This document shows, piece after piece, positions 3,074 to 7,056 of a stretch of DNA of 26,724 nt; within the stretch, counting starts at the first letter, position 1; each line of letters begins with the position of its first letter. The notes under the pieces were generated by a model. That model saw only the letters and a list, made by a program, of their open reading frames with translations. It was not told the DNA's origin and did no database searches. The DNA is from Aquificales bacterium. GTDB lineage: Bacteria > Aquificota > Aquificia > Aquificales > Aquificaceae. The position numbers and the translations under genes were made by a program. Location of the stretch: positions 1 to 26,724 of the forward strand of contig WFWF01000012.1 in the NCBI GenBank assembly GCA_015491275.1, in the 5' to 3' direction.

Positions 3074-5275
3074 TTACCTCCTCCTTACTGTAAGCACATA
3101 GTGGGAGTTTTCCTGATCAATATCTATAACCTCATGACCGTGATCCCTCATGCTTGCGGATACACTCCTTACGGACTCCTCATCTTTCAGCAAGACTACA
3201 AGGACGGAACCTATTTCCATTGATTCTATCTTTTGTTTTGCAAGTATGAAGTTATACGGGCATTCTTCATTTCTGAGATCCATTATCTCCTTCCTTGCTT
3301 TATCTTTTATACCCTTCTCCAGTTTTTCTTTTGTTTGCCTTTTAAGAAGCTCATAGGCTTTTCTGCAAGCACTTATAAACTCTTCAACCTCCCCTACGGA
3401 CGGATTTTCCTTTTTAAGTAAATTCAAGAATTTTTCATCCACATATCTTCTTCCTATGACATGTTCAGCGAATTTAAGTATCGCTTCTTCTCCTTCCGCC
3501 TTGATGCCGAAGGGTACGAGCATCCCTTTACACACCACTGTAAGGGCTTCTTTAAGATGGACTGATGCGTCTTCTTCAAAACCCTGTTGTATGTGTGCCT
3601 TTGCTTGAGAGACCATCCTTTCAGCTTCACTTATTGATGTTTCAACCATGTCAGCAACTATTCCCATACATTCTCCCACTCCTACTTCCTCAAGAGAGAA
3701 CTCTTTGTCGGAGCCGAAATCCTTAAAGTAGTCAATCTCCTCCTTCGTATGTAAATGCTTTTCAAGGATATCCTTGAAGCTTTCTTCCCCTACCCTCTCA
3801 AGAAATTCTGTAAATGTTTCATTTTCCTGCCTTGAAGTTTCGTAATATATGAGAATATCTTCTACCGCATTCGGTACATTCTTAGCGGGTATCTTAAGGG
3901 ATCTTTTTCCTATCTTTGTAGGTGTTCCCCCTAAGTGAAAGATATAGTGAGGTGCAAGTTTGCCGTTTATCTTTTTAGCAACTCCGTGAAGACCTATATC
4001 CGCTATATGGTGGTGGCCGCATGAGTTGGGACAGCCGCTTATCTTTATCCTTACGGGTAGATGGGAAAATTTATCTACAGTTTTTTCCAGGGCTTCCGCA
4101 ACTCCGCGTGAGGAAGTTATTCCGAGACTGCATGTCTCCGAACCGGGACAGCACACTATATCCTTTATACTTCCTGTCCATTTAATATCAAAACCATATC
4201 TTACAAGTGTATCTTTAATCTCATTAAAGTACTCTTCGGGTATGTTATAAAGGAGTATATTTTGATCTTGAGTTAATCTTATATTAAGTGAGTACCTTAT
4301 AGCTATATCCGTGAGGGTTCCAACCTCTGGTGAGGTTATATTACCTTTTCTTAAAAGTATATTCAAGGCGTACTTTCTGTCTTTCTGAACTATTGGGTTT
4401 ACTAAGTGGAAATTTCCTCTGGGTAGGTAAGTTTTAGGGTTGAAATCTTCATCTTCTTTTTTAAGGTGCTTGTACTCTTTCCAAAACAGGTCTTTGAATT
4501 TTTCAAATCCTACCCTTTCTATAAGAAACTTTAGTCTATTTCTCCTTTTGTTCCTCCTATCTCCGTATTTGTTAAAAACTTCAAGCACAGCTTTTATTAC
4601 GCTCGGGATGTATTCGGGCTTAACAAAATCTATTAGTAGCTTGCCTATATGTGGTGTATCCCCCTGACCTCCACCTACATACACTTTAAAGCCATGTTTA
4701 TTTTCCTTAGTTGTTGCAATTATGCCTACATCGTTGAACCTTGCGTAAGCGCAGTCTTTTTCACAACCTGAGAAAGTTATCTTGAATTTCCGCGGTAGGT
4801 TTCTGTATATACCGATGAATTTTTCTGTTGTTATCCTTGCACATTGGCCCGCATTTATTACTTCCAGGGGGCATATTCCGGAGAAACAGCATGATGTGAT
4901 ATTTCTTACCGTATCACCACACGCGTCCTTTGTTGTTAATCCGCATTCGTTGATAATTTCCACCGCTTGGGGTATATCCTCAAGCTTCACCCAGTGGTAT
5001 TGGATATCCTGCCTTGTTGTTATATGCAATATGCCGTTTGAATATCTGTCTCCTATCTCCGCGAGGGTCTTAAGCTGTTCTGGTGTTATTTCACCTCCGG
5101 GTACTTTCACCCTTATCATAAAAAAACCCTTTTGTCTCTGGCCGTATATGCCGTTTTTTAATCTCTCCTTCTTGAATTGATGTTCATCTATTTCACCCTT
5201 AATGTATCCATCTACAAGCTTTTTTATGTATTCAACATCTTCAATCCAATAAGCGTTCAATAATTTTCCTTTCAT
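3074..5275 (-). CDS. sir: Ferredoxin-dependent sulfite/nitrite reductase family protein with a C-terminal TusA/SirA-like domain
   Basis: 733 aa; two NIR_SIR repeats (MIRVKVPGG, HITTRQDIQYH, KISGCPNSCGHHHIADIG); C-terminal DLRNEECPYNFILAKQKIE...GHEV TusA-like domain; SD GGGAGGT; cysH/sat context favours sulfite as the substrate. Confidence 0.88.
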   Translation of the reverse strand: MKGKLLNAYWIEDVEYIKKLVDGYIKGEIDEHQFKKERLKNGIYGQRQKGFFMIRVKVPGGEITPEQLKTLAEIGDRYSNGILHITTRQDIQYHWVKLEDIPQAVEIINECGLTTKDACGDTVRNITSCCFSGICPLEVINAGQCARITTEKFIGIYRNLPRKFKITFSGCEKDCAYARFNDVGIIATTKENKHGFKVYVGGGQGDTPHIGKLLIDFVKPEYIPSVIKAVLEVFNKYGDRRNKRRNRLKFLIERVGFEKFKDLFWKEYKHLKKEDEDFNPKTYLPRGNFHLVNPIVQKDRKYALNILLRKGNITSPEVGTLTDIAIRYSLNIRLTQDQNILLYNIPEEYFNEIKDTLVRYGFDIKWTGSIKDIVCCPGSETCSLGITSSRGVAEALEKTVDKFSHLPVRIKISGCPNSCGHHHIADIGLHGVAKKINGKLAPHYIFHLGGTPTKIGKRSLKIPAKNVPNAVEDILIYYETSRQENETFTEFLERVGEESFKDILEKHLHTKEEIDYFKDFGSDKEFSLEEVGVGECMGIVADMVETSISEAERMVSQAKAHIQQGFEEDASVHLKEALTVVCKGMLVPFGIKAEGEEAILKFAEHVIGRRYVDEKFLNLLKKENPSVGEVEEFISACRKAYELLKRQTKEKLEKGIKDKARKEIMDLRNEECPYNFILAKQKIESMEIGSVLVVLLKDEESVRSVSASMRDHGHEVIDIDQENSHYVLTVRRR

Positions 5276-5287
5276 CTTTTACCTCCC

Positions 5288-5580
5288 TGCGGTCGGAGAC
5301 CCCTTCCGTAAGGGAGGGGAGGAGACCGCAAAATATGTTAGAATAGTAATAACCCCAAAGGCACTCTCCGCTTCCGCGGAGGGAAACGGTTTCGGGGTAT
5401 GTAAGATGAACACTATCTGGCTTCCCTTGGAGGGAAGTCGGGACACGGAGAGGCAAGACCCTCCGTGTGGGGCGCTGTCAACCGTCCCTATGTGGGGAGT
5501 GTTGGCTGTGCTATGCATGGCTAACCTCACCTACAAGCTCCTCCCGTTAGGGAGGAGTAGTTAACGGAATCACCTCCGTA
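5288..5580 (+). ncRNA. Candidate structured non-coding RNA or structured leader of unknown family; wobble polarity favours the + strand
   Basis: Hand count gives 168/300 GC (56%) over 5281-5580, against 32-45% in two spot-counted 60-mers of neighbouring coding DNA. Eight hairpins: 5288-5330, 5352-5398, 5417-5441, 5443-5468, 5469-5488, 5491-5535, 5537-5558, 5564-5579. Ten G-U pairs form on +, one on -. Confidence 0.6.
5336..5344 (+). promoter_or_regulatory. Putative extended -10 sigma-70 promoter (TGnTAGAAT), antisense to the sir operon leader
   Basis: TG-T-TAGAAT in the AT-rich linker between hairpins; predicted +1 at about 5351, where the next helix starts. The same promoter style precedes hemE and carA. 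Confidence 0.45.
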
Positions 5581-5590
5581 TTTGAGATAC

Positions 5591-5606
5591 TGCATTTAAC
5601 ATGCCA
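5591..5606 (-). promoter_or_regulatory. Sigma-54 (-24/-12) promoter facing the sir-cysH-sat operon
   Basis: Minus strand TGGCATGTTAAATGCA matches TGGCACGNNNNTTGCW with correct GG/GC spacing; predicted +1 at about 5580; adjacent to a sigma-54 activator gene. Confidence 0.8.
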
Positions 5607-5624
5607 ATTATTCACTTGTCCCGT

Positions 5625-5637
5625 TATCAATAACTTA
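5625..5637 (+). promoter_or_regulatory. IHF-type binding site
   Basis: TATCAATAACTTA is an exact WATCAANNNNTTR match, located between the -24/-12 element and the putative enhancers, the canonical position. Confidence 0.6.
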
Positions 5638-5659
5638 CATAAGCGAGGGATTTTTATGA

Positions 5660-5697
5660 TGTATATCCTTTAAACATGTTTGTTTACAGCTTATACA
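5660..5697. promoter_or_regulatory. Tandem putative upstream activator sequences for the sigma-54 activator
   Basis: TGTATA-TCCTT-TAAACA (5660-5676) and TGTTTA-CAGCT-TATACA (5681-5697) share the dyad TGTWTA-N5-TAWACA, lie 21 bp apart and are centred at about -88 and -109 from the predicted sigma-54 start. Confidence 0.65.
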
Positions 5698-5706
5698 TAT
5701 TCGGAG

Positions 5707-7056
5707 ATGGAAAGGGTTATACTGTGTAGTGCTTCGGGAGATTTGGAGATAAGAGGTATTAAAAAATACGGAGAAGTACCCGAAGACATAAGCGAGCATG
5801 TTATCCTGCTTGATGTTGATACTCTCGGCTTATCTTCCGTGCCAGATATTATTGAGGACAATATCGTTATAGCTCTTACGGGTATTCAACTCCCGGGTTA
5901 TACCATGAAGTTAATGAGTATCGGATTCTTTGATGTTATAAATATTCCCGCTGATGAGGAAGAAATTGAGGAGAAGGTGATAGAAGCTTTAAGAATTCTT
6001 GAAGAAACAAGGGTTTACACATTAATATCCTCGGAAGATATACCGAAGGGTTATCTGTGTGAAGAGCTGTGTTCCATAGTCGGTAATCCTAAGAATATGG
6101 CGGAAGCCATAAGACTTGCAGGTAAAGCGGCTTCCCTTGATGTCCCTGTTCTTATAGCCGGAGAAAGCGGTACGGGTAAGGAGCTTTTTGCGCGGGCGAT
6201 ATGGAAGCTATCAAAGAGGTGGCAGGGACCTTTTGTTGCAATAAATTGTTCAACCATACCAGAAAATCTTTTTGAGGCTGAACTCTTCGGTTATGAAAAG
6301 GGTGCATTTACCGGGGCTGTATCGCGGAAAAAAGGATTAATTGAGGAAGCCAATCACGGCATCCTCTTCCTTGACGAGCTTGGAGACATGCCTCTATCGG
6401 TGCAGACGAAACTTTTAAGGGTTTTGCAGGAGAAGAAGATAAGGCGTGTAGGCGGAAAGGAAGAGATACCTGTTGATGTGAGAGTAATAGGGGCTACCAA
6501 TAGGGATCTTGAAGCGATGGTAAGAGAGGGTAAATTCAGAGAGGACCTATTTTTTAGGCTTAATGTTATAAATATATATTTACCACCCCTGAGGGAAAGA
6601 AAAGAAGATATACCTATATTGCTTGAGTGTATGATAAAGAAATTTTCAAGGGAATACAGTAAAAGGATAAAAGGCTACACAAGAGGATTTTTGGAAACAC
6701 TTCTTGAGTACAATTGGCCCGGAAATGTAAGAGAACTGGAGAATGTAGTTAAGAGAGCTATCGCGTTATCTTCAAAAAATATACTTTCTGCTAAGGATAT
6801 TCCCGATCTTAAGGAGATTCATTATTCCCATAGGGAAACAAAGGGTTGGAAGGATGCTTTAAGGGAAGAGATAAAGGTGAGGCTTTCAATAGGTGAGGTA
6901 GATATATATGATAAGGTAATGAATGAGGTTGAAAAATTGCTTATAGAAGAAGCTTTCAGATTTTCCGGTAATAATCAGCTTAGGGCATCAAAACTTTTAG
7001 GTATAAATCGCCTTACGCTCAGAAGAAAATTGGAAGCTATACATCAGAACTTGTAA
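5707..7056 (+). CDS. Sigma-54-dependent transcriptional activator (NtrC family) with an atypical receiver-like N-terminus
   Basis: Walker A GESGTGKE, intact GAFTGA, Walker B LFLDELGDM, RVIGATNRDL, YNWPGNVREL and Fis-type HTH NQLRASKLLGINRLTLRRKL. The ORF track starts at TTG 5680; ATG 5707 is preferred because 5660-5697 looks regulatory. The 3' end overlaps the convergent mtrB by 13 nt. Confidence 0.92.
   Translation: MERVILCSASGDLEIRGIKKYGEVPEDISEHVILLDVDTLGLSSVPDIIEDNIVIALTGIQLPGYTMKLMSIGFFDVINIPADEEEIEEKVIEALRILEETRVYTLISSEDIPKGYLCEELCSIVGNPKNMAEAIRLAGKAASLDVPVLIAGESGTGKELFARAIWKLSKRWQGPFVAINCSTIPENLFEAELFGYEKGAFTGAVSRKKGLIEEANHGILFLDELGDMPLSVQTKLLRVLQEKKIRRVGGKEEIPVDVRVIGATNRDLEAMVREGKFREDLFFRLNVINIYLPPLRERKEDIPILLECMIKKFSREYSKRIKGYTRGFLETLLEYNWPGNVRELENVVKRAIALSSKNILSAKDIPDLKEIHYSHRETKGWKDALREEIKVRLSIGEVDIYDKVMNEVEKLLIEEAFRFSGNNQLRASKLLGINRLTLRRKLEAIHQNL

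Follow-up and report, generated by a model that had tools for sequence, protein, structure and literature searches.

A multicopy, protein-less IS200/IS605-type element with a putative omega-RNA scaffold probably interrupts the sir leader of an Aquificales bacterium

The stretch of DNA analysed here (the window) spans 26,724 nt of a contig from an Aquificales bacterium (genome G000). On its minus strand lies sir (3074-5275), an intact gene for an assimilatory sulfite reductase fused to TusA (Pfam NIR_SIR, NIR_SIR_ferr, and TusA). It is the first gene of a sulfate-assimilation operon, sir-cysH-tauE-sat, with Pfam matches to PAPS_reduct, TauE, and ATP-sulfurylase following 3' of sir. A sigma-54 activator of the bEBP type is encoded divergently on the plus strand (5707-7056; Pfam Sigma54_activat, 1.7e-71, AAA_lid_14, and HTH_8), and the intergenic stretch under study is the gap between the two genes. 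The true start of the activator gene is probably the ATG at 5707 and not the TTG at 5680 given in the list of open reading frames, since in the orthologs the stretch 5' of the conserved ATG has indels that would shift the reading frame. A -10-like CATATT sits just before this ATG, suggesting that the activator mRNA may be leaderless. Between the sigma-54 promoter and the activator gene there is a dyad, ATGTATA...TATACAT (5655-5700), which is conserved in three genomes of the same genus (G001-G003) and is likely a binding site for the activator.

The sigma-54 promoter itself, TGGCATGTTAAATGCA, is found on the minus strand at 5606-5591 as the -24/-12 element TGGCAT-GTTAA-ATGCA, with a predicted +1 near 5580. 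The pattern TGGCAY-N5-WTGCW occurs once in the window against 0.07 expected. All four genomes of the genus (that of the window and G001-G003) retain TGGCA(T/C)-N5-ATGCA with GTTAA, ATTAA, or ATTGT as the spacer, and the window's own genome encodes rpoN (Sigma54_DBD match in G000:C63, 1.6e-49). Given boxes conserved despite the change of spacer, a divergent activator next to the promoter, and the presence of rpoN, this promoter, assigned to sir in the preliminary description, is well supported and looks real. No sigma-70-like promoter was found on the minus strand inside the element described below; a sigma-70-type sir promoter within it was rejected on this ground.

The preliminary description also reported a structured segment bracketed by the sigma-54 promoter and by an extended -10 site on the plus strand. 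The motifs are present at the positions given: TGTTAGAAT at 5336-5344, with a predicted +1 near 5351, a helix of ACCCC (5352-5356) with GGGGT (5394-5398), and an ACGGA/TCCGT stem at 5564-5579 followed by ATTT. The bracketed segment is indeed structured, and it folds far better on the plus strand. As plus-strand RNA the intergenic DNA folds at -168.7 kcal/mol (z -7.35); as minus-strand RNA it folds at -141.5 kcal/mol (z -4.09), still better than shuffled sequences. The whole window had no Rfam match at the gathering score, and at E<=10 the region 5200-5760 gave chance-level matches only.

The structured segment belongs to a repeat of 290 nt on the plus strand (5276-5565). The window's own genome, an assembly about 70% (69.7%) complete, carries five copies of 5276-5565 at unrelated loci with 85-98% identity. 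An alignment of six copies with their flanks has sharp common ends and unrelated flanks; each copy starts directly after TCAT (mostly TTCAT) and terminates in ...GGAGTAGTTGAC. The element starts with CTTTTACC... and ends with ...GTAGTTAAC, which do not form inverted repeats. As in the IS200/IS605 family, both ends instead have subterminal hairpins on the same (plus) strand: a left one, GCGGTC...GTAA...GACCGC (5289-5329), predicted by folding and also present in the full-length elements described below, and a right one (5537-5558). Also as in that family, TTCAT (rarely CTCAT) is found 5' of about 25 independent junctions, and the empty sir site described below shows no target duplication. In the window TTCAT occupies 5271-5275 on the plus strand, and its CAT (5273-5275) is the complement of the sir start codon. 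From these junctions we infer that TTCAT would be the transposon-adjacent motif (TAM) of the TnpB clade to which the element is related.

With the ends of the element defined, the stem at 5564-5579, which had been read as the terminator of a plus-strand RNA, is seen to be a 5-bp stem across the junction between transposon and flank. It is missing in the other copies, which have unrelated flanks, and it was not scored as a terminator; the survey of intrinsic terminators on both strands of 5100-5800 found zero terminator-like sites. We rejected the terminator reading and regard the stem as a fortuitous artefact of the junction.

The copy in the window is 97-98% identical to another copy, suggesting a recent insertion. 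At its right end it has TTAAC, compared with TTGAC in all other copies, a change that might hamper excision or weaken a putative pseudoknot involving the loop GTCAAC. The family is patchy in distribution, being found in 9 of the 148 genomes searched in the order with up to 95% identity across genera. Close relatives of its TnpB are present in MAGs labelled Aquificales, Desulfurobacterium, Thermotogaceae, and others. This patchy spread fits horizontal mobility, with binning errors as the alternative.

To place the insertion, we compared the locus with its orthologs. When 5276-5565 is deleted in silico, the window becomes colinear with G001, G002, and G003, and the junction reads TTCAT|GGAATCACC with nothing duplicated. 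The three same-genus genomes and contigs from metagenomes have the empty site TTCAT|GGAATCACCTCC (TTCAT|GGAATC). In G002 the orthologous locus reads ...TGGCATGTTAAATGCA-ATATCTCAAATAC-GGAGGTGATTCC-ATGAAG.... The colinearity after removal indicates that the insertion separated the sir ATG from its native Shine-Dalgarno sequence (GGAGGTG); this ATG is orthologous in G001-G003, and its complement is part of the TTCAT target. The metagenome evidence comes from Logan contigs of vent metagenomes. In these metagenomes, word depth over 5270-5565 is 4-25x that of the flanks; one X2 contig skips exactly from 5275 to 5566, and contigs of diverged strains in X5 and X6 have the same empty site.

In the ancestral layout, about 25 nt separate the sir ATG from the sigma-54 promoter. 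The insertion would thus have split this 25-nt leader between its Shine-Dalgarno sequence and the ATG, and the sigma-54 promoter would now have to transcribe about 305 nt of antisense transposon before reaching sir. The terminal 12 nt of the left end (5276-5287) read GGGAGGTAAAAG on the minus strand, with a Shine-Dalgarno sequence at 5287-5282, 6 nt before the sir ATG. This left-end complement provides the only ribosome-binding site now near the sir ATG, GGGAGG-TAAAAG-ATG. We propose that sir is translated from it (GGGAGG-N6-ATG) in place of the displaced native site, and that the operon may survive the insertion because the transposon end supplies this substitute.

Related elements that retain a protein gene carry the same ends. 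In G001 and G003 of the same genus, the two ends are about 1.2 kb apart around an ORF of 400 aa, and 1.33-kb elements with a 400-aa ORF and the same ends are found in L011, L036, L037, and L010. The ORF matches OrfB_IS605, Cas12f1-like_TNB, and HTH_OrfB_IS605 in Pfam, and it scores 218 bits with the NCBIfam model guided_TnpB, for which the cut-off is 100. By sequence, the solved chains nearest to this TnpB are Cas12f/TnpB-like (8hr5, 4.5e-31; 8j12). The window copy retains only the last 38 tnpB codons (5408-5521, plus strand), recognized in a tblastn-type match to TnpB residues 363-400 with 89% identity, consistent with a protein-less derivative of a TnpB-only element. Neither a cognate TnpB nor a Y1 TnpA was found in the window's own 69.7%-complete assembly, the TnpB homologues there being 27-32% identical only. 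The copy may therefore be an orphan. Y1 TnpA genes are encoded in the element-carrying genomes G001, G003, G011, and G046, and full-length versions with tnpB are present in the same vent samples, where loose contig ends lead into them.

On this evidence we consider it probable (roughly 0.85) that 5276-5565 is a non-autonomous, protein-less derivative (PATE/MITE) of a TnpB-type IS200/IS605 insertion sequence that inserted 3' of TTCAT in the sir leader, and that the convergent promoters at this locus are a by-product of the insertion.

Other arrangements of the same ends were seen in these genomes. At G000:C94:2997-4350, the REP-like hairpin of the MITE left end lies on both sides of another TnpB, which is 28% identical and has a single in-frame TAG. 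Many solo copies of this left-end hairpin are found in G011 and G028. A site at the cmk start codon has one and the same left end leading into the MITE form in one contig (L103:838) and into the full-length tnpB form in another (G046:C246, L059:1502). The two forms could reflect recombination or homing replacement between family members, two strains, or an assembly artefact.

The MITE copies have a module of their own at 5330-5407, made up of the extended -10 site and a 5' stem-loop. In 5270-5620, no sigma-70-like site other than TGTTAGAAT was found on either strand. The pattern TGNTANAAT occurs five times in the window against 7.3 expected and so is by itself not above chance; support for the site comes from its conservation among MITE copies and not from the motif count. 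All MITE copies found have TG-n-TA(G/A)A(A/G)T, with variable bases directly 3' of it. The site is specific to the MITE lineage: the full-length elements lack it and instead have TTGAAA-17-TAGTAT abutting tnpB, which is probably leaderless in these elements. A plus-strand promoter facing that of sir is thus plausible from its sequence and conservation.

The 5' stem-loop of the MITE RNA (5352-5398, plus strand) stems from tnpB codons ~226-250 with a deletion of about 25 nt, as judged by alignments to L011, L013, and L065, and among MITE copies it varies by a U-G/C-G exchange. The promoter segment too is probably derived from tnpB codons ~226-250. The promoter module as such is not present in the full-length elements; it probably arose from internal tnpB sequence plus new mutations. 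The matching hairpin inside tnpB covaries between L011 and L013, with CTCCCTCTGC/GCAGAGGGAG in place of CTCCTTCTG/CAGAAGGAG. This internal hairpin of 9-10 bp covers codons ~230-247 (L011:1087-1160; L013:1100-1170) and so covaries between distant relatives; one of the changes is non-synonymous (R to K) with the pair retained. Because the MITE has salvaged this very part, the hairpin may have an RNA function in the tnpB transcript.

The 3' 154 nt of the element (5412-5565, plus strand) fit an omega-RNA (reRNA) scaffold of five hairpins and a closing helix that ends with the right-end hairpin and TTAAC. We aligned 12 sequences (alignment A1): six MITE copies, three close full-length elements, and three full-length elements of another family. 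The consensus has 56 pairs in six helices, with 98.7% of the cells paired and compensatory changes at 15 of the pairs. None of 500 shuffles reaches this, and slid controls are 44-52% paired. Read on the minus strand, the same pairs are canonical in only 84.8% of cells, and 98 cells are G-U. The difference between the strands argues for a structure selected on the plus strand, and this covarying structure overlaps both tnpB codons 363-400 and the right end, as an omega-RNA does. By its sequence, an invariant loop, GTCAAC (5477-5482), could base-pair with GTTGAC at the right-end terminus (5560-5565; GTTAAC in the window copy), which suggests a candidate omega-RNA pseudoknot.

By analogy with known TnpB biology (Meers et al. 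2023), we infer that the flank 3' of the right end would serve as the guide, and we set the predicted guide segment, its length resting on the same analogy, at 5566-5585 of the plus strand. The plus-strand RNA would then be about 235 nt long, starting from the extended -10 site and ending in the guide (5566 to ~5585). The predicted guide segment is antisense to the ancestral sir leader including its Shine-Dalgarno sequence (CACCTCC, 5571-5577). TTCAT followed by this flank is found only in the empty allele, as TTCAT+GGAATCACCTCCGTATTTG in G002 and in metagenome contigs, and the predicted target in the empty allele is TTCAT+GGAATCACCTCCGTAT. As the guide would match the empty allele of its own site, a TnpB supplied in trans could cut empty sites and thereby preserve the insertion, if this RNA works as other TnpB guides do.

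We also asked how often the family inserts at start codons, comparing 22 distinct insertion sites from the window's own genome, its relatives, and metagenome contigs. In 12 of the 22 sites, including 7 of the 8 MITE copies, the ATG complementary to the TAM opens an oppositely oriented ORF of at least 75 aa. The comparison draws on left-end junctions in the window (5271-5287), L003, L041, L042, L046, L054, L080, L093, L102, L103, and L104. Pfam matches from at or near the N-terminus show that the ATG is the true start in several cases: encapsulin (residues 1-195 against profile positions 1-181), cytidylate kinase (3-215 against 1-209 of 211), DAO (3-332 against 2-351 of 353), and DUF167 (3-73 against 3-75 of 76). 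An EngB-like GTPase and a ComM-like protein also belong to these cases. The encapsulin gene (Linocin_M18; L046:1791-2378, G000:C129) lies directly after one MITE copy. For background, the window's own genome has 3866 TTCAT sites, of which only 23.5% open such an ORF and about 2.7% resemble real starts, giving binomial p values of 0.0016 and 9e-14, respectively. Some of the bias certainly reflects survivorship.

As a target, TTCAT corresponds to ATGAA on the opposite strand. Even diverged family members retain a CCTCC-like motif 4-8 nt from the left-end terminus, and its complement can be read as a correctly spaced Shine-Dalgarno sequence about 6 nt before the ATG. Read as a TnpA 'DNA guide', the left-end CCTCC motif has by sequence no complementarity to TTCAT, and a limited literature search found no report of a left-end Shine-Dalgarno sequence in IS605-type elements. 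We tentatively suggest, as a possibility with the odds somewhat against it, that the family has adapted to start codons, the TTCAT target and the outward-facing left-end Shine-Dalgarno sequence together keeping the host gene translatable.

What the convergent promoters do at sir depends on how the locus is read. The preliminary description had the sir mRNA, activator-gated from sigma-54, overlap for about 230 nt with a constitutive sigma-70 antisense RNA; as an evolved module, the pair would control sulfate assimilation through transcriptional interference or duplex formation. Part of this stands. Both promoter-like sites exist and face each other, so convergent transcription is physically plausible and the RNAs would overlap if both promoters fire; the geometry also recurs, as 7 of the 8 MITE copies are antisense directly before a host start codon. 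The step to an evolved regulator does not stand. The DNA taken for a dedicated leader or antisense gene in the sulfur operon derives from a transposon and has several copies at unrelated loci, and the antisense unit, claimed as a part of the sir locus, is absent there in G001, G002, and G003 and in related strains of the same vent metagenomes. Its plus-strand promoter and structure are shared with the copies by encapsulin, cmk, the engB-like gene, and DUF167, which leaves no tie to sulfur; they are parts of a transposon guide RNA. The 97-98% identity to another copy, suggesting a recent insertion, also argues against a module evolved at sir. The same applies to the precedent invoked, S-box-controlled antisense regulation in clostridia. 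In Clostridium acetobutylicum the antisense promoter of the sulfur genes is a conserved, riboswitch-gated part of its locus. The two cases have in common that transcription converges over the 5' region of a sulfur-metabolism operon, but nothing else, as the antisense promoter in the window is mobile-element cargo and is absent from the orthologous loci. An evolved module is on these grounds improbable. If interference or duplex formation takes place, it is more simply incidental to the insertion.

A minus-strand leader or riboswitch that senses a sulfur metabolite and gates sir has even less to recommend it. The segment does lie in the 5' UTR of a sulfate-assimilation operon, and its minus strand folds better than shuffled sequences (z -4.09). 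However, it matches no Rfam family even at E<=10, the conserved pairs are canonical in 98.7% of cells on the plus strand versus 84.8% on the minus strand, with 98 G-U cells, and the segment is multicopy and not conserved at the sir locus. We rejected this reading because of the strand asymmetry of pairing and the empty sites, and we hold it to be very unlikely. A more serious alternative, which we still think doubtful, is that the copy is an inert relic, its promoter and omega-RNA unused, so that it has only lengthened the sir leader and exchanged the Shine-Dalgarno sequence. Consistent with a relic, the own assembly has neither a cognate TnpB nor a TnpA, TTAAC at the right end is found in this copy only, and the extended -10 motif alone does not exceed chance. 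The assembly is 69.7% complete, however, and repeats often remain unassembled; full-length versions are present in the same samples. In addition, the structure is intact in the window copy, and the promoter, gained by the MITEs and missing in the full-length elements, has been kept across copies that are 13-15% diverged.

The non-autonomous element proposed here can be compared with several known systems. The TnpB encoded by ISDra2 reportedly measures about 400 aa and contains a RuvC domain and a zinc ribbon. The ISDra2 scaffold is said to overlap the right end as well as the 3' end of tnpB and to take its guide from the flank, and the TAM, TTGAT, is reportedly 5 nt long and placed 5' of the left end. 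The family described here resembles ISDra2 in these TnpB features, in the placement of the scaffold, in a 5-nt TAM 5' of the left end, and in the predicted origin of the guide from the flank. It differs in the TAM (TTCAT), and we detected no similarity in RNA sequence. With NtrC-type bEBP systems the sir promoter shares GG-N10-GC boxes, an adjacent AAA+ activator with HTH_8, and rpoN; in contrast to those systems, the target here is an assimilatory sulfate-reduction operon and the leader is interrupted by a transposon.

PATEs that encode omega-RNAs, and TTCAT as a TAM, are already known. Geobacillus stearothermophilus has PATE-like elements related to ISGst1 and ISGst5 (Meers et al. 2023, 10.1101/2023.03.14.532601). 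PATEs frequently encode an omega-RNA whose nuclease must be provided in trans, and TTCAT is the TAM of ISGst5, which is an IscB and not a TnpB element (Meers et al. 2023, 10.1101/2023.03.14.532601). Like the Geobacillus PATEs, the element in the window has no protein gene and has ends in common with elements that bear TnpB or IscB. Unlike them, its host is an uncultured hydrothermal-vent member of the Aquificales, from a different phylum, and the MITE has its own extended -10 site, a hairpin salvaged from tnpB, and an outward-facing left-end Shine-Dalgarno sequence. For IS1341-type tnpB genes of Halobacterium, sotRNAs have been described, sense non-coding RNAs at the tnpB 3' end (Gomes-Filho et al. 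2015, PMC4615843). Compared with the sotRNAs, the window element lacks the tnpB body and has a new promoter at the deletion junction. The points of interest are thus the MITE-specific promoter, the insertion between ribosome-binding site and start codon, and a possible adaptation of the left end as a Shine-Dalgarno sequence.

A transposon guide-RNA cassette explains why a structured RNA of about 300 nt precedes a sulfate-assimilation operon and replaces a regulatory account that the locus does not support. Other hairpin-rich 'leaders' in these genomes may likewise be PATEs, and caution is needed in annotating them. The sir operon offers a natural case of an operon that survives the separation of its start codon from its ribosome-binding site by an insertion. 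With boundaries, empty site, TAM, and predicted guide now defined, a TnpB/omega-RNA pair from thermophilic Aquificales is directly testable. If the reading of start-codon insertion is right, each such insertion would set a guide-RNA promoter against a host promoter, with the omega-RNA and guide antisense to the host 5' UTR, and the expression of the host gene could be coupled to transposon RNA. If the left-end Shine-Dalgarno sequence is an adaptation of the whole family, IS200/IS605 elements would thereby have a new means of making their insertion less costly.
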